From Eledone cirrhosa (lineage: Eukaryota): 64,000 nucleotides of DNA. Location of the stretch: positions 496,001-560,000 of the forward strand of contig OZ024765.1 of assembly GCA_964016885.1 (NCBI GenBank), written 5' to 3'. A model generated the notes under the pieces. That model saw nothing but the letters and a program-made list of their open reading frames with translations. It searched no databases and was not told the DNA's origin. Position numbers and translations under genes: made by a program. The stretch's first letter is position 1. Each line of letters starts with the position of its first letter. Below, piece after piece: positions 3,486 through 62,105 of this stretch.

Positions 3486-3511
3486 AATATATATATACAT
3501 GATACACATAC

Positions 3512-3559
<48 letters not shown>

Positions 3560-4229
3560 TGTTACACATACATATATATGTCGTCAAAGATAGGACGAGG
3601 AATGTAAAAATAATATAATTTCAACCAGTTTATTTGATGAAATTAAATTAGACACGCGCGAACAAAAGAAAAGAATATGCAATATATACGTGAAAAACAC
3701 TTTTTAACCCGAAAATAAATGAAAAAAACATTTCTCAGTTACAAGTTTGCTTTAAGGAATACGTATGTAATGCATGTATATATCTATGTATATATGTATG
3801 CATGCTTGTATGTATATATATACATATATATATATGGATGGATGTGTGTAAGTATATGTGTATATACATATATATATATATATATCTATGTATATATATA
3901 AATATATATATATATACATACATATATATATATATATGTATACACATATATACTTACACACATCCATCTATATATATATATATTAAATATATACACACAT
4001 ATATATGTAGGTACGTGTGGCTATATATATATATATATATATATGCAATCATTGTTAAATAAATTTCCACTGCACAGCATGGAGGTGGGAACTGCATATC
4101 ATGCTAAATTCATCTTAGAACAACAAGGCACATGTTATCACACATGTGGTTATGTTAGTCGGGACAGGACAAACAGACATGGATATACGTATATGCATAA
4201 ACACACACATCTATCTATCTATCTATCTA

Positions 4230-4384
<155 letters not shown>

Positions 4385-5082
4385 CATACTTACACGCACA
4401 CACATGTATATATATATAATAATAAATACATACATACATATACATATATACATACATACACACACACACACATGTATATATATATATATATATATATGTA
4501 CCCAACTGTGTCTGTCTGTAATGTATTGTCACTATTTGCAATGTTCAACTCGTCGATTATTTCCTGTAATAATAGAATTGAGATCAACATTCAGCAAAAA
4601 CTGTTTCATTCTTTAAATCTAATGGAAAAATACTGACAGAAATAAACTACAACAGTAACAACAACAACAACCGCAACAACAACAACCACCATTAGAGCTA
4701 CAACAAATAGGACAACAACTAAAGCAAGGGATACTGCCATTACACCATTACAACAACTACAGCAACAACAACTTCTGTAACTACAATAACAATTACAATA
4801 ACGATACGCCATTATACATACAACAACAACTGAAGCAACATCTACAGCAAATACTCCTACAACAACTACAACAAGAAATACAACAACGTCTACAACGTTA
4901 TTCCTACAACAACAACTACAGTAAGAATAACACTATATACAACAACAACAACTACAACAACATTGACACAATATATATATACACATACCTATGTATACAA
5001 ATATATATATATATCATTTCATATATTTAGTTTTGTATGATGTATTAGGTGAATGTATTTGTATATATATAAACATATATAC

Positions 5083-5172
<90 letters not shown>

Positions 5173-5608
5173 CACATATATACATTATATATATATATAT
5201 ATTATGTATATAAAAACGCATATTTATATATATATATATATATATATAAACACACACATGTATATATATATATATAATTTGATATAGTACAAAATATTGA
5301 ACAAATTAAGCCCAACTAAATAGACAAAGTTTGCATGTCAGAAATATCAGTTTATTAGAGGCTGATAAGTAAATATAGATAGTATCATTCGATTTTTGAC
5401 AATGTGTCTGTAACATTCTGGGTCACATGACGACATTACACACATCACATATCTCTACAGAATTTCAATTATTCTACAATGTTTGTTCTACGTTTATATA
5501 ATGTGGTTGTTTATGGTTATTAATAGTTAAATATGGTTTACGTTTTCGCTTTCATCATTTTTTTTTCATTTTAGGTTTGACTTTAAATACGCGGTGTATA
5601 TATATATG

Positions 5609-5681
<73 letters not shown>

Positions 5682-5716
5682 TATATATATATAATCATAT
5701 ACAGGCCGTATTATGT

Positions 5717-5753
<37 letters not shown>

Positions 5754-5897
5754 TATACAGGCCGTATTATGTATTTATATATATATATATATATATTACA
5801 TATACACATATATATATATTAAAATGACAGATTAAAGTTTAAGCAAAGAACCGCTGCTTTCACCCTTCAAATATATTATTACTACTATATATGTACC

Positions 5898-5929
<32 letters not shown>

Positions 5930-5967
5930 CACATCTATCTATCTATCTATATTTCTTTCTATCTATC

Positions 5968-6032
<65 letters not shown>

Positions 6033-6163
6033 TATATATATACAGTATATATATACAAGTTCACGTGTGTAGAGATTTAGAGAGAGACACGCGTTGAATT
6101 ATTCATTGCAATGATTAGCACTACAATACATTAAAACCGTTAGTATACATCGCAATAACTATG

Positions 6164-6222
<59 letters not shown>

Positions 6223-6538
6223 CAATGGCGGTCTGTGAGCGAGACGATGAAATAAGTTGTAAGATGTTATGAGATGTAAGGTATTCCCTCTTGACTTACA
6301 AGACATACAAGAAACAAAGATTCACGCTGACTCACCATTTCCTATTACGCTGTCAACGAGGTACATTTTACATGTTAGGACGTGTCAAATGTGTTACTTA
6401 GTTTCCCTCTATTCTATGTAGCGCCCGCTCTGATTGATATACAAGACATATTTGTCAATGCCGCTCAATAGAAACACACACACAGTCATATACATTTATA
6501 TGTATATTTATATATATATATACATATATATGTGTGTA

Positions 6539-6605
<67 letters not shown>

Positions 6606-6607
6606 CG

Positions 6608-6698
<91 letters not shown>

Positions 6699-6700
6699 TA

Positions 6701-6977
<277 letters not shown>

Positions 6978-7178
6978 AGAAAGTGAGGGGTTTTTACAAA
7001 ATTAAAAATAACCGAGGTGTCCTACACGAGTGAAAGTATAAAAAAAAAAAGATGAAATCGAAAATGCAACTGGAGTCTTATTTCTATTAAAAAATATATA
7101 TTTATTTGGTTCCTTTACCGGTTTCACAGTTCTTCTGATTTCAAAAGTAGAGTTGAGATGGAGGGTCTGTGGTCTTCT

Positions 7179-8532: not shown

Positions 8533-8767
8533 ATGCTTCGATAAGTTTTGGCCAGTGTTGGCCCAACTTATGTCTAATTGAATAGCACCTGACGAAGCCT
8601 TTCAAATCAGGATTTGGACACCATGCCCGACTCAAGTAGAGAGTTTATATTTACAGTCATATCGGCGTATAGGAGGTTTATCCGGGATTTCTTGAAATAA
8701 TTTGTCTAAAGATTGTTTGAACATAGGATCTGTCTCTGTTTGAATGTGATTTGGTGTAATGTTAAAT
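8533..8767 (-). mobile_element. Older, degraded 3' fragment of the same LINE family as 47245-50906
   Basis: Reverse complement ...CTTTAGACAAATTATTTCAAGAAATCCCGGATAAACC...CATGGTGTCCAAATCCTGATTTGAAAGGCTTCGTCAGGTGCTATT...GGGCCAACACTGGCCAAAAC aligns with about 50650-50880, with substitutions and indels. Confidence 0.85.
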
Positions 8768-8960
8768 CTTTCGAAGCAGAGTTTCTTCCACCCAAAAAAC
8801 ACTGCTTCGAAAGATTGAGACGTATCTGAGGGGATCTTGCGAGTTCAGAGCCAGGTTGGATCATTGCATCGATCATGTCTCGAGCTGGTTGCCAGAGAAA
8901 GGAGTGTAATATGTGTAATACATTTTAATTCGTAGCAACACTGTTCTCCGTTTCTTATGT

Positions 8961-20502: not shown

Positions 20503-20787
20503 TTATGTAATAAATAACATAAGACAATTATTCCATTTACCAACGGTTTCTCGAAGACAGACGAGCTCAACACAGACGTCTGAAATCACTCGTCAGAATG
20601 AAACATTTGATGTGGAAATGTTTCATTCTGATGAGCAATTTCAGACGTCTGTGTCAAGCTCGTCTTTCTTCGTGAAAGATTTGGTAAATGGTATAATTGT
20701 CTTATGTTGTTTATTACATAATTAAATAGCTCTGTAGCCTATATAGAGCACTCTCCTTTCCTTTACCTCTCCAACGGAAATACTTCA
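20503..20787. mobile_element. TA-embedded fold-back element (~105-bp arms) containing degenerate type I hammerhead ribozyme motifs
   Basis: Arms 20503-20608 / 20616-20721. Minus strand reads TTCATT CTGACGA ... GAAA CC GTT GG TA AATGGA; the plus arm has CTGATGAG. Confidence 0.7.
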
Positions 20788-25450: not shown

Positions 25451-25453
<3 letters not shown>

Positions 25454-25636
25454 CGAAGGAAATGTGGTAAGGAACCAGGTGGACCATAACGCACCAAAGT
25501 ACTCAATACTTGAGGTAGTAGAGTGGGTAATAGGAACCAGTAAGACTCCGACAGCTGAGCTCAAGCCGTTTCGACGGCTAATTCCAGAATTAGCCGTCGA
25601 AACGGCTTGAGCTCAGCTGTCGGGGTCTTACTGGTT

Positions 25637-25640
<4 letters not shown>
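25451..25640. mobile_element. TA-embedded fold-back element with hammerhead 3' half (Penelope-like pLTR piece)
   Basis: 54-bp inverted arms 25531-25584 / 25587-25640 with one mismatch. Contains GAAAC GGC..GCT GTC. (TA)n on both sides. Confidence 0.75.
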
Positions 25641-29019: not shown

Positions 29020-29279
29020 TATATCTACCATCGTATTATGCATTCTGTAATCACAGATTTCCAGATTAGATAGAGCTTTGAAAAATGTCAATTAATAAGA
29101 TACCAAAAGTATGGTGGAGACAGAATCTCACACATCTGGGCTTTAAGTCAGACTTCTTAAATACTCTCCCCCTCCGGTGTCGTGTGAAATAGATGCCAGC
29201 CATTGCAAACTATCGGAAGCATATTCCTTCATGTTTAACATGTAATCTTGTAGGATGTCTATAGGTGATTATATTAAGT

Positions 29280-29965
29280 ATATATATATAAATATCTTTG
29301 TATATATATATACATATATGTATGTATAATATATGTATATATATCGTATATAAACAAAGACATATACACACACGCACAAATATATTTATGTCTATATTTA
29401 TAAATATGTTTGTATATATATATACATATATGTATGTATAATATATGTATATATATCGTATATAAACAAAGACATATACACACACGCACAAATATATTTA
29501 TGTCTATATTTATAAATATGTTTGTATATATTTATACATATATGTATGTATAATATATGTATATATATCGTATATAAACAAAGACATATACACACACGCA
29601 CAAATATATTTATGTCTATATATATAAATATATTTGTATATATATATACATATATGTATGTATAATATATATATATATATCGTATATAAACAAAGACATA
29701 TACACACACGCACAAATATATTTATGTCTATATATATAAATATGTTTGTATATATATATACATATATGTATGTATAATATATGTATATATATCGTATATA
29801 AACAAAGACATATACACACACGCACAAATATATTTATGTCTATATTTATAAATATGTTTGTATATATTTATACATATATGTATGTATAATATATATATAT
29901 ATATATCGTATATAAACAAAGATATATACACACACGCACAAATTTATTTATGTCTATATAAATAT
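29280..29965. repeat. 112-bp minisatellite, ~6 copies, built from microsatellite-like sequence
   Basis: AAACAAAGA recurs at about 29352, 29464, 29576, 29688, 29800 and 29914. Confidence 0.9.
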
Positions 29966-30151
29966 GTATATATATATATATATATGTGTGTGTGTATATA
30001 TATATATATATATGTGCATACACAAAAATATACAAAAGCTTATACATACATACAGGCATTCATTCATACATATATACCTAACTACATACATACACACCAA
30101 CATATCACAAGCTACATACATTCATACATATAGACATGCATATATATATAA

Positions 30152-30769: not shown

Positions 30770-31028
30770 ACTCACTCAGATGGTGGATGGATGCTACACG
30801 AGAATGCTGAGCATGGCTCTCAACATGAATCAGTATGCACTGAGGATGAAGAACTCAGTGCTCTACAGGAGCCTTTTAAAAGACAGCCCGAAAGAAACAC
30901 AGAGAAGACTGAGGTTAGCTGGACATACTCACCGAGATTCAGAGTTGACACTGCACTCAATGCTCCCGTAGGAGCCCCTAAACGGACACACTAGAAGTGG
31001 GAGACCGAGGTTGATATATATTGATGTT
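30770..31028 (+). pseudogene. RTE-clade LINE C-terminal remnant
   Basis: DGCYTRMLSMALN...QRRLRLAGHTHRDSE...*EPLNGHTRSGRPRLIYID, an RTE-type C-terminus with an in-frame stop. Confidence 0.75.
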
Positions 31029-31312
31029 AGCTTTACTTTTCATCCTTACGCGGTCGATAAAATAAAGTACCAGTAATACACTGAGATCGATTTAATCGAC
31101 TTTGCTCACCCTTGTACCTAAATCAGAAACCATTATTCTTTTTTTGGCAGTATCGGTAGAGGGCTGGACGCCATGCTTTCTAGCATAGTTACGTCCCTTT
31201 ACATTCTGAGTTCAAATCCCGCCGAGGTTAACTTTGCCTTTCATCCTTACGTGGTTGATAAAATAATGTACCAGTAATTGCTGGCCTTGTGCCTAAAGTA
31301 GAAACAATTATT
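31029..31312 (+). mobile_element. Two tandem tRNA/CORE-type SINE copies
   Basis: GAGTTCAAATCCCGCC (B-box-like), CTTTCATCCTTACG.GGT.GATAAAATAA.GTACCAGTAA twice, and tails CCTTGT.CCTAAA..AGAAAC.ATTATT. Confidence 0.75.
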
Positions 31313-32139: not shown

Positions 32140-32285
32140 GTAGGTGTCGAATTGTGTGAGTTGTTAGATAACCTGACAGAATGGTTTATGGGATCCGTTC
32201 AGACTGTTCAGATCCCACAGAGGTCAACTTTGCTTTTCATTCTTTCGAGGTCGATAAAAAAAGTTCCAGTCTAGTACTGGGGGAG
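32140..32285 (+). mobile_element. Degraded SINE copy (another at about 135-262)
   Basis: GTTCAGATCCCACAGAGGTCAACTTTGCTTTTCATTCTTTCGAGGTCGATAAAAAAAGTTCCAG. Confidence 0.6.
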
Positions 32286-32350
32286 ATTTTTCATCTATAT
32301 CTCTTTCTCATTTCCTCACACTCTATCTCTCCACATATATATATATATAA

Positions 32351-32490
32351 AACGAAAGATTTGTGGTAAGGAACCAGATGGACCATGACGCACCAGAGTT
32401 CTCAATACTTAGGGTAGTAGACTGGGTAATAGGAGAAAGTATGACGCCCGACAGCAGAGCTCAAGCCGTTTCGACGGCTATTTCTGGACT
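32351..32490 (-). mobile_element. Third copy of the 25451 family, long arm only
   Basis: AACGAAAGATTTGTGGTAAGGAACCAG...GCCGTTTCGACGGCTATTTC, ending at the position where the other copies fold back. Confidence 0.75.
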
Positions 32491-32537
32491 AAAATATATA
32501 CATATATAATATAAAATATATTGTATATGATAACCTT

Positions 32538-32701: not shown

Positions 32702-33324
32702 GGTGTATATATATATATGTATATATATATACGGTATATATATATATACATGTAATTTACCCTCAATATAAAAAATAATTTGAATAATTTTGATTTATAT
32801 CGAAAATACAAATAAACATATTTTATGTATTCTTTTCAATTTTTTTTGCAATATTTCTTTCAAATTTTAATTGCTTGTATAGTTTTTAAACAAAAGCTAT
32901 TTTGAATATATTTCACTAGGAACTAAGATTCTTCCGGAAATAAAAATTCAATGGTAAAATTGTGAATAGAGTCTTTATAGATTCGAAATCAATCTAAATT
33001 GTAAATTGGTGACAATTAATCAAGAATTGTAAAAAGATATTTCGCAGAAATGCAATTGTTATGTAATATTCTTAAAAAAATATTTGAATACCTCGTGAAA
33101 ATGAATCGAAGTATTAATTGGAAAATACTCTATCGGTTTTTATTTTATCTGATTTGCTATGTTTTTTATATTAGTTTTAATATTTGAAAATAATGAAATT
33201 ATAAGTTATCTTTGTTTCTTTCTCGAATTCATTATGTTAGTTGTGTGTAGAGTGTAATTAATGGCCTGTTACTGAAGTGGTGGTATCTCAACTACCGGCT
33301 TTTAATTTGATACTTCTAAATGAT

Positions 33325-33516
33325 AATTGCTTCTACTTTTTTGGCACAAGGCCAGTAATTAACCCAGTGTATTACTGGTACTTTATTTTATCGATCTCGT
33401 GAAGATGAAAGCCAAAGTTAAACTTGCGGGATTTGAACTCAGAATGGCAAGGGCCGTAACTCTATACGTCAACACATGGTGTCCGACCCTCTACCGATAC
33501 TGCCAATCCACCGCCA
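33325..33516 (-). mobile_element. Same SINE family, minus strand
   Basis: CTGGTACTTTATTTTATCGA...GATGAAAG...GGGATTTGAACTCAGAA...CTACCGATACTGCCAA is the reverse complement of the 31145-31312 copy. Confidence 0.75.
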
Positions 33517-35139
33517 ATATATAATATATGCATACAACACACACACACACACGCACACGTACACACGCACGCAGTTAAAGGTAAACAGAAATAACAACAC
33601 AATCGGTACAGTATATGGAAGGTATATATTAGGTTAACGCTTGATATAGCAGGAAGAGGGTTTTATATGTGTGTGTGTGTGTGTGTATAAAAATGGCAGA
33701 GAGAATATAATCCAAAGTAAGGCTACAAAGCTACTAAAATACAAGAGGTTACTGAGAATGAAATAGAATATGTTACAGGGAATATAATTCAAGGTGAAAG
33801 AAGTTGAAGATTGTTATTAGTTTTATATTCGTTTCTTATTTTTCTTTTCATTTTTTCCTTTTCTATTTTGTTATTTCATGCATTTTTATTTCCATGAATA
33901 AAATATACAAAACAACGGTGTTTATAACATTTCCATATAAGCGTTTGTAAGTTTTTGTTAGGGAAGGATACGTATGTAACTTCAAAAGGAAACAGTATAA
34001 CCTTAGCATGGTTCTGAATCCGATATCTTAGAGAACATCTCGTAAATGTGATCAAGGTTCAACAGTCAGGTCAGACGCCATACTTGCATACAAGCGCCAT
34101 TTTCTACCTAGTGTTTATCAGAAAGATAAGTGCACGCTTCATGTATTATATTAATCCAGAAGATTTATTGCTTCGCTTGGTGGATAGCGAGGTAAATATA
34201 ACATAATTAAGACCTTTTGGCTTTCAGAAAGAGAGAAAGGATGACAGAGAGAACGCCAATTGCAATGATAATGACTAAACACGAAATCCAAACCGATTTC
34301 TTACAACTTTGCGGAAATTTATTGTTTCCTATATAACATTTCCTGAATGGAATAAGGTGGAAGAATGTATATACAGTTAGCAAGAATATTGGCAAATCTT
34401 ATTTCGCTTTTGTTTTATTCATCCCGGGTTCATGACATTAGTAATTTAAATATACATAGCAAAGCAGCCGTCGGGTTAGCTAAATTGTCCGTATCGTTGG
34501 AGATTATAACGCATCGTACTCATCTTTACAGTAATCGATGCTCGGAATTAAATTAGTGATTCCGTGTAATATGAGATCCTTGAGTGATTTCTGTAACACA
34601 TCAACCGTTCTTTTCCTGTTAGACATCAAATAAATGCTAACGACCCTTTTGTCTTTTCAGGGTCGACAAATAGAAGGGGAAATGTGGGAAAACCAGAAGA
34701 AATGAAGATTTATGTCTTTAATTTCTTAATTCAAACGAACTTACCAAAGAAAGGAAAGAGTGGAGATTGGCATGTTGGCGGTGTTGGTGGTGTTGGTGGT
34801 GGCAGTAGTTCAACATGTTAAATTCTTAGGATAAACGAATGGTAAGTAACAACACTTGGCACTCGTTTTGTCTCGAGTTCGAGACCGTTGCGAAGTAGCG
34901 GGTAAAGTGTCTCTTGTGTGACTTGAACAACGGAAATGGAGGCGGAATAGGGTGTGGTATGGTCCCGTAATTCCTGATCTGAAAGAGTCGTAGAGGCGCC
35001 GTGTTGACATACAGCATCCCTTAAACATTTCAACCCTGGTAGAACCCATCCCTCCCCAGGCCTGAGTAGAGCAGACTTTTTCCAGAGAAAGATACAAAGT
35101 GAGAGAGTGGAAATGAGAAAGAGATATAGAGGACTAATC

Positions 35140-35292
35140 GGCCCCAGTACTAAACTGGTACTTTTTATGGATCACGAAAACATGAAAGGCGAAGTTGACC
35201 TTGGCGGGATTTGAACTCAGAGCAGAGAGATGGAATGAATAACATAAATCATTCTATCAGACGTTCTAACGACTCTGACAATTTGCCGCCCA
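35140..35292 (-). mobile_element. Same SINE family, minus strand
   Basis: CTGGTACTTTTT...ATGAAAGGCGAAGTTGACCTTGGCGGGATTTGAACTCAG. Confidence 0.7.
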
Positions 35293-42388: not shown

Positions 42389-42654
42389 TGAAATAAGAGA
42401 TTAAAGTTTTCGAAAAGAATCGCTGCTTTCATCCTTATATACAACTCCTTCCTGGTAGTCTTCTTCTACCTCGTCCTCACACATTCCTTTCAGCTGTCTT
42501 CAATTCGGTTCCGCGTGCCAACCCTTACCTATGTCATAAACCTTGGGTAATGACCGAAAGAATCTAATCACGTATACATGTGATACAGACATACACACCT
42601 ACAGGTATGACAGACATTACAACGCTTGACTTATATAATTTATCTCTCCCCTTC

Positions 42655-43002
42655 TTTTCTCAGTCGACGTAATCGCCCCTTCCACACTCTGTCAACAGAA
42701 CCACCCCTCCTCCCTCAGTCGACATAACCACCCCTTTCTTCCTCAGTCGACATAACCACCCTTCCTTCCTCAGTCGACATAACCACCCATTCCCCCCTCT
42801 GTCAACAGAATCACCCCTCTCCTCCCTCAGTCGACATAACCACCCCTTTCTTCCTCAGTCGACATAACCACCCCTTTCCTCCCTTAGTCGACACAATCAC
42901 CCCTTCCATCCTCAGTCGACATAACCACCCCTTCCTTCCTCAGTCGACATAACCACCCCTTCCTTCCTCAGTCGACATAGTCACTCCTTCCTCCCTCTGT
43001 CA
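42655..43002. repeat. ~23-27-bp minisatellite CCTCAGTCGACATAACCACCCCTT
   Basis: About 13 units with a GTCGAC core; variant units CTCTGTCAACAGAA are interspersed. Confidence 0.9.
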
Positions 43003-45808: not shown

Positions 45809-46836
45809 TATATGTATATATATGTATGTATGTATGTATATATATATATATATATATGTATGTATATGTATATATGTATATATATATATATATATATGTA
45901 TGTATATGTATATATATATATGTATGTATATGTATATATATATATGTATGTATATGTATATATATATATGTATGTATATGTATATATATATATGTATGTA
46001 TATGTATATATATATATATATGTATGTATATGTATATATATATATGTATGTATATGTATATATATATATATATATGTATGTATATGTATATATATATATA
46101 TGTATGTATATATATATATGTGTATGTATATGTATATATATATATGTGTATGTATATATATATATATGTGTATGTATATGTATATATATATATGTGTATG
46201 TATATGTATATATATATATATATATGTATGTATATGTATGTATATGTATATATATGTATGTATATGTATATATATGTATGTATATATATGTATATATATG
46301 TATATATATGTATGTATATGTATATATATGTATGTATATGTATATATATATATGTATATGTATATATATGTATGTATATATATGTATATGTATATATATG
46401 TATGTATATATATATATATATGTATGTATATGTATATATATGTATGTATATATATATATATATGTATATATATGTATGTATGTATATATATATATATATA
46501 TATGTATGTATATGTATATATATATATATATGTATGTATATGTATATATATATATATATATGTATGTATATGTATATATATGTATGTATATGTATATATA
46601 TATATATATGTATGTATATGTATATATATGTATGTATATATATATATATATGTATGTATATGTATATATATGTATGTATATATATATATATATGTATGTA
46701 TATATATATATATATATGTATGTATATATATATATATATGTATGTATATGTATATATATGTATGTATATGTATATATATGTATGTATATGTATATATATG
46801 TATGTATATGTGTATATATGTATATATATATGTATG

Positions 46837-46869
<33 letters not shown>

Positions 46870-46886
46870 GTATGTATATATATATG

Positions 46887-46933
<47 letters not shown>

Positions 46934-47066
46934 GTATGTATATATATATGTATGTATATATATATATATATGTATGTATATATATATATATATGTATGTG
47001 TATATATATATATATATGTATGTATGTATATATATATATGTATGTATATATATATATATATGTATG

Positions 47067-47146
<80 letters not shown>

Positions 47147-47244
47147 TATGTATGTATATATATATATATATGTATGTATATATATATATATGTATGTATA
47201 TATATATATATGTATGTATATATATATATATGTATGTATATATA
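45809..47244 (+). repeat. ~1.4-kb compound (TA)n/TATG satellite, left flank of LINE
   Basis: Only T/A with interspersed G (TATGTATGTATATA...); G, not C, on the + strand. Confidence 0.95.
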
Positions 47245-47805
47245 AGAACTCTCCCTCCCACAGTCCACAAAGGTCGTCAAATCCTACCCAAACCATCATC
47301 TACACCTCTCACAACACCCACACCCATATACCCACCCACTCGAAACCCCATCATTTGCCGCTACTCTCTACGCTATAGAATATGTACGGATAGTGGCTGC
47401 AAATTCACCCATTTACCTAGGACAAAACGATCTATCCCCACAAACAGCCACCACCATAATACATACTCTAATTTAACACCAACACAACCACCAATAACTC
47501 AAACAAGGAATCCACAAATCTGCCGTTTTTCCCTGCGAGACAGATTGTGTTTAGACCGGGATTGTCCCTTTACCCATCTCCCGGGGACCCGTCGGATAAA
47601 TGAAAATAAAAGCAAAAACAAAAACCATAACCTACATAAAAATAACCACTACCACAGTCACCAACAGTCTTCTAAACAGGAAACTTCTTCCTCTTTTTTA
47701 GCCATAATGAATCTGGCAAAAGAACTGGAAAAAAACATTCGAGCTATCACCCAGCACCACCCTCCACTATCACCCCACTGCACAAACTCCCATTGCTGCC
47801 ATTAA
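47245..47805 (+). CDS. LINE ORF1 C-terminal part with two CCCH zinc fingers (5' end missing)
   Basis: Real part of ORF 45826..47805: Pro/Thr-rich linkers, [19 protein letters not shown] (47356-47412) and [19 protein letters not shown] (47521-47577), both C-x8-C-x4-C-x3-H. Stop TAA at 47803-47805. Confidence 0.8.
47694..47736 (+). other. Candidate -1 ribosomal frameshift sites (T TTT TTA 47694-47700; A AAA AAC 47730-47736)
   Basis: Both heptamers are in X XXY YYZ phase relative to ORF1 codons (TCT TTT TTA; GAA AAA AAC). The -1 frame is ORF2 and is stop-free from 47676. Confidence 0.55.
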
Positions 47806-50800
47806 CAAACAAACAAATTAACAACACACCAAAACAATTAAAACCATCCACTCTCGCCTCTACATTTTTGCTTAACGCCCAAGGCATCAGCCCTTCCACC
47901 AATACTCAAAAATGGAAGATCAAATTCCTGGAGGACTGGATTGATGTCCATCCAAACCACATCCCTTTCTTCGTCCTCACTGAAACCCATCTCAGTAACC
48001 TCCACTTGGAAGCCGAGGTGAAAGTGAAAAATTTCAAAGCCATCCGTGCTGATCGCGCTGGCAGAAGAAAGGGCGGAACTGCCATTTATGTCCATAATTC
48101 TTTCTCAACAGAGGCTATGAACATATTCACTAATGGATACTGTGAGGCAGTCACTGTATTCAGTCAAACCAACAACCTATTAGTAGTTGGGCTCTATAGG
48201 CCACCCCAAACGCCTGTACCATGCTTCAAGGAATGCCTCAACAGCATAAAGTGTTTCATCCAAGAGTGTCACCCTGACAACATCTTAATGATGGGGGACT
48301 TCAACCTCCCCGGAGTTGACTGGTCCACAAACACCCTGCCACCAGGTTCTTCTGCCTCAACCTCTGACAGGGAAGCTGTGGAATCGCTTCTTGACTTCAT
48401 GGATGATTTCTTCCTATCCCAACTAGTGCTCGAACCAACGAGGTGCCACAAAAACGTCCTAGACTTAATTTTCAGCAATCACACTGACAATATCCACAAT
48501 ATTGCAGTGGAGAAAACTCTACTCTCTGATCATGACATGGTTCTCTGTGATCTGAGATTCCACCGTCCAATATACAAACCCAATGTCATTTCTCCTGTCC
48601 ATCCGTTTGACGCTATGGATTTCCACAATGCAAACTGGGAAGCGATCAGTCATGATCTTGCACATGTCGACTGGTCCTTCACGCACACTCATACACCCAC
48701 TAACATCAAAAAGTCCTGGCAGACATTTGTGGACACTGTTACAAACATATGTGCTAAACACACCCCATTAAGAACTATAAACAAATCTAAGAGCAGAATC
48801 CCTAGAAATAGAAAAACGCTCATCAGAAAAATTAAGAGAACGAACAAAAAAATCAACAATCTGAAATACTGTCAGCAGCAACACATCAACTTGACTGCCA
48901 TTTCATCACTAGAGATTAAAAAACATAACCTCCAAAACAACATAATGTCCCTCATCAACAATCAGAGAAGAGCTGAAGAGGCCTGGGCCATTGAGAAGAT
49001 CAAACTCAATCCCAAAGTGTTCTTTTCATTTGCAAAAAAACACAAAATCACTGGCTCTACTGTTGGCCCTCTAATTGATGAAAATGGCACTCTTCAAGAC
49101 AATGCTAAAACCATGGGTGAGATACTGCAGAAACAATACTGCTCTGTTTTCAGCAATCCTGATATGGCCGATCTGGGCTGTATCGGCGATGTTACTCCCC
49201 ATTACACCTTATCGGACATAACGTTTGGCGCCCCTGATGTCTTGGCGGCAATAAAGGAAATCAAGCATAATTCAGCAGTAGGTCCCGATAGGTTCCCTGC
49301 TTGTGTCTTGAAGGCGTGTCAACACCAACTTGCTTCTCCTCTTGCCAATCTGTGGCGGAACTCACTGGATGCTGGATATGTGCCAGAAAACCTTCTATCC
49401 CAGTCTGTTGTCCCAGTTTTCAAAAAGAGAAACAAATCCCTTGCCGTGAATTACCGTCCAATCTCACTCACCTCTCATATCATTAAGGTATTTGAGCGAG
49501 TGGTGAGATCGCGAATGACCCACTTCCTTGAGAGTAACAATATGCTGAACTCCAACCAGCATGGATTCCGTAATGGAAGGGATTGCCTGACGCAACTACT
49601 GCATCACTTTGATGACATTTTGAGAGCCTTGGGAGAGGGTTCCAACACTGATGTTATCTACCTTGATTTCAGCAAGGCCTTTGACAGGGTTGATCATAAC
49701 ATTCTACTGAGAAAGCTGTCCAATATTGGTGTCACTGGAAAGCTGCTGCAGTGGATCAAGAGCTTCCTGTCAAACAGAACCCAACATGTTGTAGTTGAGG
49801 GAGTCAAATCAAGCCCAGCCAAAGTCAGTAGTGGAGTCCCACAAGGCACTGTGTTGGGCCCACTTCTCTTCATCATCTATATTAATGACATCACTGACAT
49901 CATCAAACACAGCAACATTAAAATTTTCGCTGATGATTCCAAGCTCCAAAAGGTCATCAATGGCGTGGATGACCGGATAAGCCTTCAGTCAGACCTACTG
50001 GCTGTTACCCAATGGGCAGAAAAGAACAACATGTTACTGAACGAAGACAAATTCGAACTGATCCACTTTGGAAAAGAGGATGCTCTGAAACTCCCGTACT
50101 CCCTTCCCTCCGGGGAAACTCTCGTGGCATCTAACAACATCAGAGACTTGGGAGTAACCGTGGACAGCAACATAAGCTGGACCACGCATATAAGCAGCAA
50201 AGTTGACATGGCCCGCAGAATGTGTTCCTGGATCCTCAGAACCTTCCAGTCGAGAGATTCCCGCACCATTATCCTTCTCTTCTCTACTTTCGCCCGACCA
50301 CACCTTGAATACTGTTGTCCACTGTGGTCTCCCCACACGAAACAAAGTATCATGAAACTTGAAGCTCCTCAAAGGGCAATCACGAAAAAGATAGATGGCA
50401 TGTCAGACCTTGACTACTGGGGTCGATTGGAAAACCTGAAACTTTACTCACTCCAACGTCGCCGTGAGCGTTATATTATCTGCATGATGTGGAAAATGTT
50501 CCATCATCACTGCCCAAATGATGTTGGCATCGCCTTCAAGATACACCCAAGGCTTGGGCCCCGTGCTATCCGTCCCATTCAAAAATCTAAATCGCAACTC
50601 ATAACAACAATACGGCACAATTATTTCACCTCAATCGGCCCTGCTCTCTTCAACATCACACCAGGACACGTCAAAACAGAAACTGACCACACAAAATTCA
50701 AGAAGTCTTTGGACAAATTCCTCCAAGTAATCCCGGACAAACCACCCACACCCGGATATGTCTCCGCAAACAGTAATTCTCTTCTCGAATGGGCCATGGT

Positions 50801-50813
50801 GCCCAAATCCTGA
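47793..50813 (+). CDS. LINE ORF2: apurinic-like endonuclease + reverse transcriptase (1006 aa, no stops; frame actually open from 47676)
   Basis: EN motifs LLNAQG, LTETHL, GGTAIYV, LYRPP, MGDFNLP, PTR..LDLIFS, SDH. RT motifs [54 protein letters not shown]1-type C-terminus [12 protein letters not shown] and [10 protein letters not shown]. The listed start is TTG; the first in-frame ATG is at 48117. Confidence 0.95.
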
Positions 50814-50906
50814 ATTGAAAGACTTCGCCAGGTGGTGCTATTAAGTTAGACATGGCCTGGGCCAATACTGGCCAAAACATTTCAAAGTTATTCAAAGTTT
50901 CAAAGT

Positions 50907-51070
50907 TATATATATATGTATGTATATATATATGTATGTATATATATATGTATGTATATGTATATATATATGTATGTATATGTATATATATATGTATGTA
51001 TGTATATATATATGTATGTATATATATATGTATGTATATATATATATATGTATGTATATATATATGTATG

Positions 51071-51101
<31 letters not shown>

Positions 51102-51106
51102 GTATG

Positions 51107-51137
<31 letters not shown>

Positions 51138-51142
51138 GTATG

Positions 51143-51173
<31 letters not shown>

Positions 51174-51190
51174 GTATGTATGTATGTATG

Positions 51191-51223
<33 letters not shown>

Positions 51224-51224
51224 G

Positions 51225-51317
<93 letters not shown>

Positions 51318-51590
51318 GTATATATGTATATATGTATATATATATATATATGTATATATGTATATATGTATATATATGTATATATATATATATGTATATA
51401 TGTATATATGTATATATATATATATGTATATATGTATATATATATATATGTATATATATGTATATATATATATATGTATATATGTATATATATATATATG
51501 TATATATGTATATATATATATATGTATATATGTATATATATGTATATATATATATATATATGTATGTATATATATATATATATATGTATG

Positions 51591-51628
<38 letters not shown>

Positions 51629-51658
51629 TATGTATGTATATATATATATATATGTATG

Positions 51659-51689
<31 letters not shown>

Positions 51690-51726
51690 ATATATATATA
51701 TATGTATGTATGTATATATATATATG

Positions 51727-51815
<89 letters not shown>

Positions 51816-51904
51816 ATATATATATGTATATATATATATGTATATATATATATATGTATGTATATATATATATGTATATATATATATGTATATATATATG
51901 TATG

Positions 51905-51953
<49 letters not shown>

Positions 51954-51968
51954 ATATATATATGTATG

Positions 51969-52015
<47 letters not shown>

Positions 52016-52020
52016 GTATG

Positions 52021-52063
<43 letters not shown>

Positions 52064-52078
52064 GTATATATATATATG

Positions 52079-52146
<68 letters not shown>

Positions 52147-52151
52147 TATAT
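50907..52151 (+). repeat. ~1.25-kb compound (TA)n/TATG satellite, right flank of LINE
   Basis: Same unit type and polarity as 45809-47244. Confidence 0.95.
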
Positions 52152-52566
52152 TTAATATATCCGTATGGTTGTTATGAAGCAGATTTGCAGATTCTGATGT
52201 ATATGAAGAATTTCAATAATTAAAAAAATACAAGGGTTAATGTTCTTTCATACACACACACTCACTCATATATATATATATATATACTTAAAGTAATCAT
52301 CTTGTAAAAACCATGGAAAGGTGATTTCACGACAAATGCAATCTAACTTATATTCTATTAAATCAATCTATAATGGAAAGTGAGAGAAAGTACAACACTT
52401 TTAAATATAGTACATCTCAATAAGTACATTCTCTGCTTTTGTTCTGAGATAAGAAAAAATATTTTTTTCTATGTAAGACCCAGTGAAAGAAATCGGGACG
52501 CTACATCTTAGAAACATTCCCACATGCATCTTGTTGCATGACTCAATAAGTGGAGTTATGTATATA

Positions 52567-52605
<39 letters not shown>

Positions 52606-52861
52606 GTATGTATATGTGTGTTGGTAGAGAGTGAGTGAGAAAGATATGTATCCGTCTGTGTGCGGGTGTTTATATATGAATACATGTGTGTATGCATATA
52701 TATATAATATATATGTTTATGTATTTATATATTTATATATATTTATGTATGTATACTTAACATTTACACAACAAATAACAACAATGCGCAATGTTATTTT
52801 TACCTTTTAACATACTTCGCTCCGTGTTGTGACATTGTATTTTTCTGAATTATACCTCAGT

Positions 52862-52907
<46 letters not shown>

Positions 52908-53123
52908 TTGTATATTTATATACATGTATATATGTACATGTGTGTATATATATGTGTGTGTGTATATATATATATATATATTTATTTATATATATATATA
53001 ATGTGTGTGTATATATATATCTATATATTTATATATATATATAATGTGTGTGTGTATCTATATATATATATATAGAAATATATGTCTATATATTCATGTA
53101 TGTATCTATATATATATATATAT

Positions 53124-53314
53124 GAACGAGTAGGACCCCGACGGCTGACCTCAAGCCGTTTCGAAGGCTAATTCTGGTCTGAATTAGCCGTCGAAACGGC
53201 CTGAGCTCAGCCGTCGAGGTCCTACTCGTTCCTATTACCCACTCTACTACCCTAAGTATTGAGTACTTTGGTGCGTTATGGTCCACCTGGTTCCTTACTA
53301 CATTTCCTTCGTTA
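53124..53314. mobile_element. Second fold-back copy of the 25451 family, opposite orientation
   Basis: Arms 53124-53174 / 53181-53231; the long arm continues to CCTTCGTTA. Contains GAAACGGC CTGAGCTCA GCCGTC. Confidence 0.75.
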
Positions 53315-53929
53315 TATATATATATATATATTTATGTATCTATATATGTATATATAGTTATGTATATATCTATATGTGTATATATATTTATATATATATC
53401 TATATACAAATATATGTATATATAAATATATGTATTTATATTTGTCTGTGTATATATATATATATATATATACACATACATGTGTGTGTGTGTCTGTCTG
53501 TCTGTCTGTGTGTGTGTTTCTGGATGTGTGTTTGTATTACATGAAAAATTTCGTTTGTTGCAAAACCGAGTCTCATTTATTAAACACCAAACCAAAAAAA
53601 AAAAAAAAAAAAAAAAGCAAGTAACAACAAAAAACTACCACCATGACAGGCGCCATTTTCTTGCATTTTGCTTTGTTACAAAATTAGTAAAGAAACAAAC
53701 AAATGAAAAAAATAACATTCTCTCATTTTGAAAGGAGCATTAAAGATTAAGATTACAAGTCAAAGGTGCTCCTTTCTTCTTCCGTATCTAATTAAAGTGT
53801 GTAAACATCCTCCGGGCATTTTCGGTCGCCATTTTGTAAGGTTCAGAGAAAGCAATTTTCATGGCAACCACATTTAATCAAATTGTCTTTTATTCGCCTG
53901 ATAAAAGGTTTGTTATTGCTCAGCTTTCA

Positions 53930-54625
53930 AACACAGCATACTTGATCAACGCTTTATTTATCAAATATTTTTTTAACAAATCGTCTTTTTTGCTCGCTAG
54001 ATCTTTTGGGATACTCACTTTAAAATAACCTGAACCAGATCTTGGATATATTTATCAAACTCTCTTTATTGAAATGTGCTGTGTTGTGTACGCCAGATAC
54101 AAGATCTTTTGATACTCACCTTAAGAAAGCATGAACCAGATATTGAATATATTTATCACACTCTCTTGATTGAGTTGTGTTGTGTTGTGTACGCCAGAAA
54201 CAAGATCTTTTGATACTCAACTTTCAATATCGAATTCATAATCAGTGCTATATTCATAAAATATTCCTTTACAAATCTTCATTTTGGTCGCTAGATACAA
54301 GACCTGTTGATACTCATCTTACAAAAGCATGAACCAGATCTTGGATATTTTTATCAAACTCACTTTATTGAATTGTGTTGTGTTGTGTTGTGTACGCCAG
54401 ATACAATATCTGTTGATACTCACCTTAAGAAAGCATAGACCAGATCTAAAATAAATATATTTATCAAACTCTCATTTTTGAAGTGAATTGTGTTGTGTGC
54501 GCCAGAAACAAAGATCTTTTGATACTCAACTTTCAATATCAAATACATGATTAGCGCTATATCTATAAAACATTTCCTAACCGTTGAGTTTATGCATCAG
54601 ATATATGATTTGTTGATACATAGCT
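53930..54625. repeat. ~100-bp degenerate satellite with ~300-bp higher-order structure
   Basis: GATACTCA at about 54010, 54111, 54212, 54309, 54415 and 54521; unit pattern A-A-B-A-A-B. Confidence 0.8.
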
Positions 54626-55360
54626 TTGGTGGGTGTAAACGAAATCAAAAATAAATTTATCAAACGGTTATTTATAACGGCGATGTATTTGTTTTACAAG
54701 TTATATTTATATGAAATGGTGAGTTGAAAAATATATTGTTATATTTTGGGAGGGTCATGTTATCCTCAAGTTGCACACCATGTAAACCTCTGAGTTTTGG
54801 GCAGCTTATTAAAAAGCTGAGACCCTCTAAACCCTGGCTACTGCAGTATGTGGTCCTGATTCTTGAATCAACGGATTGGACCTATAATTATAATATATAT
54901 ATTTTCATTTTTATTTTTATTTTTATTTTTATTTTTATTTTCTCTTATTTTAATCTTTGTTATTTTCCTAGAATGTCAAAGTTTCCTTGTTTCAGGAAAG
55001 TTTTTAAAAAATAGAATATGGAAGCTAACTTTGATATTAGAGCGGTTCAGATGTAAAATGTTGAAACAATGATTGAGTGGAGGAAGCTTACAAAATGTTA
55101 CAATGGTGTCTCTATGTATTAACAATCTGTGTTGTTACTGTACATGTAAATATACACATACATATATACATATGTATGTGTATATGTGTGTGTGTATATA
55201 TATATATACGTGTGTGTGTGTATATGTATATATATGCATTATCCATGCATATATATTTGAACAAAAAAATATATATATACATATATGTGTGTGTGTGTGT
55301 GTGTGTATAATATATTCATTTATATATGTCTATAAATATGAATACATACATATATCAATA

Positions 55361-55407
<47 letters not shown>

Positions 55408-55500
55408 GTGTGTTTGTGTGTGTGATTGTGCATATGTATGAATGAGTATATATATATACATACACATACCAAGTGTGAAAAAGATGATCTGTATATATGC

Positions 55501-55533
<33 letters not shown>

Positions 55534-55557
55534 CTCTTGTCTACACACATATGTAGA

Positions 55558-55608
<51 letters not shown>

Positions 55609-56067
55609 TCATGTGTATATTTATATATATATGTATATATATATATATATATGCATATATGCGTGTGTGACAGAAAGAGATAGACTGTGTGCGTGTGTGT
55701 ATCTATATTTGATGTGATGTGTCAGCCACAGAATTTCAAATTACTACCGTTTCGTTCCGGCGGGAAATCGCGTCGTGATGTGAATACACGATATTTGGTA
55801 AATATGATTTCTATAGATGTGAGGCTTGCTCATTTTTGCTGCTGCTGCTGTTGTTGTTGTTGTTATTATTATTATTATTTATGCTATATTTTTTCTTGTT
55901 TATTTTTGTTTTCGTTTATTGGTTTGTTTGTTTGTTCTTGTTGATGTATTTTTTATTGTTGTTGATGTTGTTGAGGTTGTTGAGGGAGGCACACACTGAG
56001 GGAGTGAGAGACACACCACTCGCTTATTAATATACGTGTACATATATATATATGTATCCACATGCTC

Positions 56068-56112
<45 letters not shown>

Positions 56113-56172
56113 TACATGGACATATATGTGTGTGTATGTCCTTTTATGCATATATATATATATATATATATA

Positions 56173-56283
56173 TACACAGCTCTCTCGCTCTATATATATA
56201 TACAGCTATATATATATATATATTTATATATACAGCTATATATATATATATATTTATATATACAGCTATATATATATATACAG

Positions 56284-56355
<72 letters not shown>

Positions 56356-56443
56356 CTATATATAAATATAGATATATATATACAGCTATATATATATATA
56401 TATATATATATACAGCTATATATATATATATATATATATACAG

Positions 56444-56477
<34 letters not shown>

Positions 56478-56510
56478 CTATATATATATATATATATATT
56501 ATATATACAG

Positions 56511-56576
<66 letters not shown>

Positions 56577-56886
56577 CTATATATATATATATATATATAT
56601 ATACAGCTATATATATATATATATATATATATACAGCTATATATATATATATATATACAGCTATATATATATATATATATATACAGCTATATATATATAT
56701 ATATATATACAGCTATATATATATATATATATATATACAGCTATATATATATATATATATATATATACAGCTATATATATATATATATATATATATACAG
56801 CTATATATATATATATATATATATATACAGCTATATATATATATATATATATATACAGCTATATATATATATATATATATATACAG

Positions 56887-56922
<36 letters not shown>

Positions 56923-56944
56923 CTATATATATATATATATATAT
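56173..56944 (+). repeat. CAGC(TA)n compound satellite (~25 units), left flank of second LINE
   Basis: Repeated TACAGCTATATA... with variable TA count. Confidence 0.95.
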
Positions 56945-57536
56945 GGTCACCCCATAGGTCACCCCATAGTGTCAAACTAACCACAGAGCTTGAGGCAATC
57001 CAGCGAAGCTACACCAAGAGGATTGCCAAGATGAAGGAGACAAGCTACTGGGAGAGTCTGAAGGAACTGAACCTCTACTCCTTGGAGCGAAGACGGGAGA
57101 GATACGCAGTGATCTACATGTGGAAAATCCTGGAGGGACTAGCACCAAACTTTGGCATTGGGAGCTGGACCAACCGTCGAACAGGACGTCACTGTGTGGT
57201 GCCAAAGGTCCCGTCTTCCACATCTAGAATAAGGAGCTGGTATTGCAATAGCCTGGGATTCAAGGGCCCTCAACTCTTCAACAGGCTGCCGAGGTATCTG
57301 CGAGACTTGCATGACGTGGAGGTGGATGTCTTTAAGAAACATCTCGACACCTTGTTATCCAGGATCCCGGATGAGCCCACAGCAAGACACGAGGGAAACC
57401 TAAGGGCAGCAGCAACAAACTCCCTCCTACACCAGTGGGCAACCTATACAGGCTGGAGATAAAATGTGTAGCAACAAGGGCGGTGCCCCAGCATGGCCTC
57501 CGCCGGATGGCTGAAACGGGTAAAAGAGTAAAAGAG
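56945..57536 (+). mobile_element. 5'-truncated LINE (second CR1/L2-group family), ORF2 C-terminus plus 3'UTR
   Basis: WSPH...[10 protein letters not shown]...[20 protein letters not shown]...[16 protein letters not shown]...AATNSLLHQ aligns with the C-terminus of 47793..50813. Stop at 57462; tail GTAAAAGA GTAAAAGA. Confidence 0.92.
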
Positions 57537-57802
57537 TATATATACAGCTATATATATATAATATATATATATATACAGATATATATAATATATATATATA
57601 TATATATACAGCTATATATATATATATACAGCTATATATATATATATATATACAGCTATATATATATATATATATACAGCTATATATATATATATATACA
57701 GCTATATATATATACATATACAGCTATATATATATATATATATATACAGCTATATATATATTATATATATATACAGCTATATATATATATATATATATAC
57801 AG

Positions 57803-57831
<29 letters not shown>
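57537..57831 (+). repeat. CAGC(TA)n compound satellite (~10 units), right flank of second LINE
   Basis: Same unit and orientation as 56173-56944. Confidence 0.95.
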
Positions 57832-57834
<3 letters not shown>

Positions 57835-59614: not shown

Positions 59615-60330
59615 GAAGCCGTGTGACCGGGGGTAAGTGTGTTGGCTTGGACTTAGGATCATAAAGTCGGCGGTTCGATTCCAGGTCGATATTGTGTGTT
59701 GTGCTCTTGTGAACCTCGGGGGTTGAGACAGGCTTTAGCCCTGCGATGGACTGGCGTCTTTTCCAGGAGGATTTCGTACTCTGACACCTAACGCCTCGGA
59801 AACCTGACAAGGGGCTTAATGAGCCTCCGGGCTTTGTGCCTCCGAGGTAGAGAAAGGCTTTAATCCTGCGACGGACTGGCGCCTTTTCCAGGAGGATTTC
59901 GTACTCTGACACCTAACGCCTCGGAAACCTGACAAGGGGCTTAATGAGCCTCCGGGCTTTGTGCCTCCGAGGTAGAGAAAGGCTTTAATCCTGCGACGGA
60001 CTGGCGCCTTTTCCAGGAGGATTTCGTACTCTGACACCTAACGCCTCGGAAACCTGACAAGGGGCTTAATGAGCCTCCGGGCTTTGTGCCTCCGAGGTAG
60101 AGAAAGGCTTTAATCCTGCGACGGACTGGCGCCTTTTCTAGGAGGATTTCGTAATGTCAGTCGCCTAATGCCTCGGAAACCTGGTCAAGCTCCGGCATAC
60201 TTAGCCTGCGATGGATTGGTATCTTTTCCAGGGGTGGGTGGTTCGAACTCTCAGTCGCTTAACGCCTCAAGCAACGGAGCTATGAGACTCCGGGCTCCGC
60301 ACATACCTTAGGCAGACTTTAGACGGGAGA
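59615..60330 (+). mobile_element. tRNA-derived SINE with tandemly amplified central domain
   Basis: B-box GGTTCGATTCC near 59672. Motif CCTGCGAYGGACTGGCG at 59740, 59865, 59990, 60115 (125-bp period) and a diverged copy at 60205. Confidence 0.75.

Positions 60331-60512: not shown

Positions 60513-62105
<1,593 letters not shown>

Follow-up and report, generated by a model that had tools for sequence, protein, structure and literature searches.

Two LINEs inside compound TA arrays of Eledone cirrhosa: probable insertion into, and splitting of, arrays that were already present

Introduction

Long interspersed nuclear elements (LINEs) of the CR1/L2 lineage are marked by a short tandem-repeat tail at the 3' end and by the absence of both poly(A) and RNase H. 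The tail of CR1, L2 and RTE elements overlaps the target by one to several bases (PMC6007223, citing Ichiyanagi and Okada 2008), and the types of first open reading frame (ORF1) described are CCHC, RRM, PHD, Tnp22 and esterase, CCCH not being among them in the part of that source available (PMC4120745). Several LINEs insert into simple repeats, namely Waldo (ACAY), Mino (AC), Kibi (TC), Koshi (TTC), Dong (TAA) and crocodilian Tx1 (TTCC/TTTC) (PMC3812793, PMC4494074), and one criterion regards a LINE as target-specific when more than 20% of its copies are flanked by the target (PMC4494074). Among plant DNA transposons that target TA, the flanks of occupied sites can exceed the empty sites in length (PMC4486113, PMC5907723, PMC8449440). 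Here we analyze a stretch of 64,000 nucleotides from Eledone cirrhosa (GenBank assembly GCA_964016885.1, contig OZ024765.1, positions 496,001 to 560,000 of the forward strand), hereafter the window, in which two LINEs of different families, LINE1 (47245..50906) and LINE2 (56945..57536), each lie within a long compound TA array. We favor the explanation, with a probability of roughly 0.65, that both elements inserted into, and split, pre-existing arrays by ordinary target-primed reverse transcription.

Results

LINE1 lies on the plus strand between two arms of a TATG/(TA)n array, a left arm of 1436 bp (45809..47244, plus strand) and a right arm of 1246 bp (50907..52152, plus strand). The left arm contains 162 G, no C, neither AA nor TT, and no phase break; the right arm contains 109 G, no C and a single phase break, at its far end. 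LINE2 is enclosed by 770 bp (56175..56944, plus strand), beginning at CACAGCTCTC, and 297 bp (57537..57833, plus strand) of CAGC(TA)n, a unit private to this locus: all 33 occurrences of CAGCTATA in the window fall in the LINE2 arms (56203-57800), and its reverse complement is absent from the window. With the LINEs removed, the window contains 83 TA arrays amounting to 28% of its length. Only three of these reach 500 bp; all three are at least 1 kb long and together make up 9.1% of the window, two of them are the LINE-bearing arrays, and the longest of the remainder measures 438 bp. The third long array (60517..62105, plus strand, 1589 bp), which serves as a control, holds no LINE and has the same build, with 135 C and one G on the plus strand (C standing where the LINE1 arms have G) and two phase breaks; a LINE is thus unnecessary for making such an array. 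An earlier note on this DNA had described the long arms of like polarity, the private LINE2 unit, the shortness of ordinary TA tracts and a LINE-free array of comparable length, and the measurements bear out all of these. Like unit and like polarity on both sides of each element would be expected under our explanation, because splitting one array yields exactly that.

The junctions are consistent with a simple cut. When LINE1 is taken out, 8 and 11 A/T letters join in phase and give a G-to-G distance of 20; the neighboring distances span 16-22 to its left, and to its right the distance is 12. At the LINE2 site, 21 letters meet 8 and form a spacer of 29 (28 if one T is shared), and nearby spacers measure 14-32 in the left arm and 16-29 in the right. 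The LINE1 left arm ends with the same 24 nt with which the right arm begins, a match attained by 2.6% of random cut pairs (n = 1435), so that a target-site duplication (TSD) of normal size, up to 24 nt, is possible at LINE1, although proof is impossible inside a repeat. Moreover, the two arms share an exact 68-nt block with G spacing 20, 22, 4, 18, 4 (47108..47176 and 51590..51658, both plus strand), located 68 bp to the left and 683 bp to the right of LINE1. A shared length of 68 nt was reached by 1 of 500 unit shuffles and by 0.5-2.3% of 600 local-composition shuffles (P 0.002-0.023). The simplest reading of this block is that one array, heterogeneous by then, was cut. A model in which the LINE1 arms represent one giant TSD was rejected, since the two arms lack colinearity (P 0.52).

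A different account holds that each LINE inserted into a short compound seed and that both flanks were inflated, through stuttering during repair or through repeated copying of the target, instead of a TSD being made. The LINE1 arms are long, nearly equal in length (P 0.07), pure in one-strand polarity and, apart from the break at the far right end, without phase breaks. The youth of LINE1 would also leave little time for later growth had the seed been short. Plant DNA transposons provide precedents in kind: TAFTA targets of 6-8 bp are reported to have grown to as much as (TA)50 per side (as cited in PMC5907723), and MuTAnT has on average 15 repeats per occupied flank versus 9 at empty sites (PMC4486113). 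However, these precedents amount to tens of repeats, whereas the arms here reach 1.3 kb and contain higher-order blocks, and the 68-nt block in both arms calls for an array that was already complex. The joined arms give a normal unit, a TSD of normal size is compatible with LINE1, the LINE-free array is built alike, and no TA run follows the tail in most visible copies of the LINE1 family or in 41 of 42 flanks of its relatives (see below). We therefore consider inflation of the target very unlikely.

It could also be that the assembly expanded or misjoined long arrays. A 200-N gap stops 113 bp ahead of the LINE1 left arm, and the public-run records that we compared are too short to span the arms. 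Nevertheless, the variants in the arms are ordered and locally duplicated, exact repeats of 82 and 76 nt inside single arms go beyond those in shuffles, and each locus has its own unit, so that an error would have had to create an identical private unit to either side of each of two elements. Assembly error is, in our judgment, a highly improbable source of the pattern.

LINE1 is a young non-LTR (long terminal repeat) retrotransposon with an apurinic/apyrimidinic-type endonuclease (APE) and a reverse transcriptase (RT), and belongs to a multicopy, 3'-biased family. Its second open reading frame (ORF2; 47676..50813, plus strand) runs unbroken for 1045 codons from stop to stop. The endonuclease (residues 82-289; PF14529, E 6.6e-14; PF03372, E 2.3e-07) stands upstream of the RT (residues 586-828; PF00078, E 4.2e-31) in this one frame, the arrangement that defines APE-type non-LTR retrotransposons, and Pfam gave no match to RNase H in LINE1 ORF2. 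The part of ORF1 that is present (47245..47805, plus strand) has no start methionine at its 5' end, and LINE1 is possibly truncated within this frame. Two C-x8-C-x4-C-x3-H motifs predict, by their pattern, a CCCH-like ORF1 product; Pfam matches for it stayed below the cut-off, the atlas matches (<0.9) are a lead only, and a literature search for a CR1 element with a CCCH ORF1 gave unrelated titles only. Motifs of this kind also occur upstream of ORF2 in 6 of 80 related loci (L004, L017, L019, L022, L028 and L038). In the region 47676-48120 the ORF2 frame begins before the ORF1 frame has ended and has no ATG ahead of the endonuclease domain, which suggests non-standard initiation or a frameshift. 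At the 3' end LINE1 carries a tandem tail of three CAAAGTT units (50883..50907, plus strand), whose final T is common to the array; the tail in other copies of the family reads CAAAGTTAT.

LINE2 (plus strand) is the 5'-truncated 3' end of an element of a second family, recognized by its match to LINE1 ORF2 (38% identity over 162 amino acids, E 2e-22). Its tail (57520..57538, plus strand) consists of two 8-bp units followed by a GTA that overlaps the array, so that the final tail letters of both LINEs are common to the array. At its truncation point, the 5' junction, there is a 12-bp tandem duplication (56945..56968, plus strand), a pattern that re-priming would leave. Judged by their features rather than by RT phylogeny, both elements appear to work like LINEs of the CR1/L2 lineage (Jockey superfamily): short tandem 3' tails in place of poly(A) are found in LINE1 and LINE2, and tandem tails in 50 of 80 relatives, and LINE1 ORF2 has no RNase H match. 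A search of the window by tblastn and blastn revealed an older 3' piece related to LINE1 (8536..8766, minus strand; 74% over 239 bp), absent from the earlier note and used here as a control, which has a short TA run past its tail, no TA at its 5' side and no long array. An imperfect inverted repeat of 52 bp (8765-8816) is present at the 5' end of this piece.

If LINE families truly preferred long (TA)n, through an endonuclease preference for TpA or through access at cruciform or broken TA tracts, at least one fifth of young copies should lie in arrays and be hidden by short reads. Two families, with two of two well-preserved copies, are found in arrays of at least 1 kb, which gives P 0.008 under uniform insertion and P 0.03-0.06 when insertion is weighted by TA or TATA sites. 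Microsatellite-targeting LINEs of APE type are known (PMC3812793, PMC4494074), and AT/TA repeats are fragile and form cruciforms (PMC12972899). None of five SINE-like (short interspersed nuclear element) pieces in the window has TA on both sides, but at the background of 16%, the share of points in the window with TA on both 30-nt sides, this would happen by chance about 4 times in 10 (own arithmetic). The older LINE piece at 8536-8766, too, lies outside any long array. Of the TpA steps in the window, 59% are located in TA arrays, and alternating TA accounts for 14% of random 21-mers drawn from it. LINEs are only modestly over-represented in long arrays (chance 0.02-0.07), and this excess was singled out post hoc.

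Part of LINE1 is present in 20 of 24 listed public runs, seven of them with half its words or more; we compared LINE1 with four (X1, X16, X20 and X22) and left out the runs with small word shares (X4-X14). Pieces in the contigs of X1 and X20 show no differences over 283 and 729 nt, respectively, which indicates that LINE1 is young. In X16 the summed depth, which is not a copy number, is ~3,500-7,000 across the four bins at the start of the element and climbs to ~100,000-140,000 in those ahead of the 3' end, as in a multicopy family with 5' truncation. At the tail, 424 reads of X22 pass the first unit into off-reference sequence (agreement 0.54), and ~56 remain aligned as far as 50906, i.e. ~12% of ~480 tail-crossing reads, close to the 14% background of the window. 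Forty contigs of X16 (median 251 letters) and 57 of X1 leave for off-reference sequence as well, the former from the tail and the latter from 50877 (agreement 0.47 and 0.60). The consensus beyond the tail in these three runs is mixed and AT-rich, and follows in-phase alternation at 10 of 21 places in X16 and 13 of 21 in X22. In none of the three are nearly all copies in TA, as they would be for a target-specific LINE; the TA-flanked share is ~12% by X22 reads and probably below 20% by the 40 X16 contigs, both data types under-counting long TA flanks. Most visible copies have mixed flanks, so the family does not depend on TA as its target, and its insertion does not, as a rule, produce TA arrays.

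Some further records concern the same family. Joints that skip 3662 letters (47244-50907) were tried as empty alleles and rejected, since each side has 19-20 letters of generic TA repeat. Contigs that go on upstream of 47244, by 81 letters in X1 and 194 in X20, were not counted as evidence on the 5' flank, since ORF1 has no start methionine there and the extensions may be more element. Near-identical LINE1 sequence appears in runs X1 and X15-X20 under several coded organism labels; in X20, where its depth is ~9, only 11 contigs carry it. Close relatives, contamination or recent transfer are alternatives for the X20 sequence.

Distant relatives were collected by C-terminal alignment, and 80 of 143 confirmed metagenome loci were examined; four pattern matches among viral_contigs and 15 among genome_contigs gave no confirmed relative. 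Where a tandem tail was called (50 of 80), it ends in GTA, TAA or TAT in 30 of 50 cases. Among 42 flanks of at least 25 nt, one starts with (TA)n, the tail of L043 going directly into (TA)12, and one runs into (ATT)n (L068). Of these relatives, L029 and L048 also have a microsatellite, (TACA)n and a CA-rich tract, at or just past the tail. The group does not build TA flanks, an observation that says nothing on TA-rich hosts.

Other repeats share the window with the LINEs. A non-coding element of 186-188 bp is present in three copies that are 86-90% alike (25453-25638; a shorter one at 32352-32493; 53125-53312 on the opposite strand) and ends in a near-perfect hairpin of ~106 nt (z -16). At a threshold of 0.7, two of three copies have TA arrays on both sides, and the remaining copy has an array on its right side and just ~15 nt of TA on its left; this element is perhaps a better candidate for TA targeting than the LINEs. 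The five SINE-like pieces (138-264, 31023-31311, 32150-32323, 33323-33506 and 35101-35284) are 73-87% alike over matched parts. ARAGORN found no tRNA. A 46-bp repeat, 85-91% alike, stands immediately after a TA array each time (5822-5867, 6700-6746 and 42391-42437). There is also a palindrome of 219 bp, 86% self-complementary (20503-20721), and tandem arrays with longer units are found at 59707-60183 (~125 bp), 53895-54574 (~100 bp), 42645-43002 (~83 bp) and 29270-30034 (112 bp).

Discussion

Our results favor the explanation that LINE1 and LINE2 cut into arrays that were there before them, and the order of events that we infer is as follows. The APE endonuclease would nick an AT-rich target, and an RNA tail ending in GT/TA(T) would pair with one to few bases of the nicked strand, for which TpA steps would be convenient priming sites. 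The outcome would be at most a loose bias to TA-rich DNA, with no required target. The arrays themselves would have grown through host replication slippage and block duplication before insertion, and possibly the arms grew after it as well.

The proposals of the earlier note on cause fare differently under these data. That LINEs target expanded TA arrays fails for an obligate target, as (TA)n does not follow the tail in the majority of visible LINE1-family copies; a partial preference is possible, because the double-digest restriction-site-associated DNA (ddRAD) library and the short-read contigs hide or collapse long TA flanks. Inflation of the target instead of a normal TSD is not supported, given the joined unit, the shared block and the LINE-free array. 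Nor is there support for the LINEs as generators of the microsatellite load of this genome, 80 of the 83 TA arrays in the window being shorter than 500 bp and in contact with neither LINE.

Nevertheless, the favored explanation should be interpreted with some caution, since a number of points weigh against it. The length of the shared block is one among several statistics tried, the block may have become common to both arms through exchange after insertion, and the arms of LINE1 are, as noted, close to equal in length. Two of the three LINE pieces lie inside long arrays, with P 0.023 for at least two of three under uniform insertion (P ~0.07 by our own arithmetic when the 16% background is used instead). 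No empty allele was seen. The organisms of the public runs are coded and possibly not the species of the window, the comparison covers the family of LINE1 and not that of LINE2, and the loose-end figures are those among the loose ends listed, beyond which 1134 further rows exist. With a simulated TA share of 20% and 40 loci, a match to alternation as low as the one observed has P 0.02 (X16) and 0.045 (X22), but reads are not loci, and with 15 loci the same share gives P 0.12 and 0.20. Reads of X22 start at CATG and stop at AATT, and pure alternating arrays have neither, so copies inside long arrays are invisible in that run. Contigs collapse the junctions between tail and TA: the summed depth of X16 stays high through the tail and is 3946 at 50906, versus 6-20 in the low-depth contigs listed. 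Finally, among the rows visible the metagenome hosts seem poor in TA, and certain tail calls are open to doubt. Taken with the array-borne copies of two families, the X16 depth and L043 speak for a true preference for long (TA)n, which we regard as unlikely given the near-background share of TA-like reads. A further possibility, in our view also unlikely, is that some CR1/L2-group LINEs form a lineage in which ORF1 encodes a CCCH finger and tails end in GT/TA, and which homes on long, phase-pure (TA)n in animal genomes rich in simple sequence repeats (SSRs), the split arms continuing to grow. Such a lineage would provide a (TA)n-preferring LINE and make long TA arrays a sink common to LINEs and the 188-bp hairpin element.

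As it most likely stands, the arrangement matters little, as insertion into a TA-saturated genome looks like this, and matching flanks on both sides are no proof that the element made them. Were a preference for (TA)n true, TA would join the known microsatellite targets of LINEs, and LINE1 would offer an intact young ORF2 for asking whether the endonuclease reads the TA sequence or the cruciform. In open-licence PubMed Central papers and bioRxiv we found no TA-targeting CR1/L2 family, a search that did not cover supplementary or Repbase-type target tables, and the available parts of PMC3747384 and PMC11481361 hold nothing on TA targeting.

Among described systems, the elements resemble CR1/L2 LINEs in an ORF2 with APE and RT, a variable ORF1, copies that are mostly 5'-truncated, and a short tandem tail at the 3' end, one to few bases of which coincide with the target (PMC4120745, PMC6007223). 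They differ in the CCCH-like ORF1 of LINE1, which is outside the five types described in the available part of PMC4120745. With Waldo, Mino, Kibi, Koshi, Dong and Tx1 they share the placement of a LINE within a simple repeat that continues on both sides (PMC3812793, PMC4494074); those, however, are family-wide specialists, none of them listed for (TA)n in the parts available, whereas here most visible flanks are unrelated. The shrimp Litopenaeus vannamei is similar in that about one quarter of its DNA is simple repeats and SSRs stand beside most transposable elements, while no mechanism of LINE targets is claimed in the available part of that study (PMC6341167). Like Micron, MuTAnT, SaTar, Ac-mMITE and TAFTA, both LINEs have (TA)n on both sides (PMC4486113, PMC5907723, PMC8449440). 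Those plant elements move by cut-and-paste, have 62-95% of their copies in microsatellites (SaTar table) and have flanks of tens of repeats, whereas at the present loci a retrotransposon is found in compound arrays of kilobase length.

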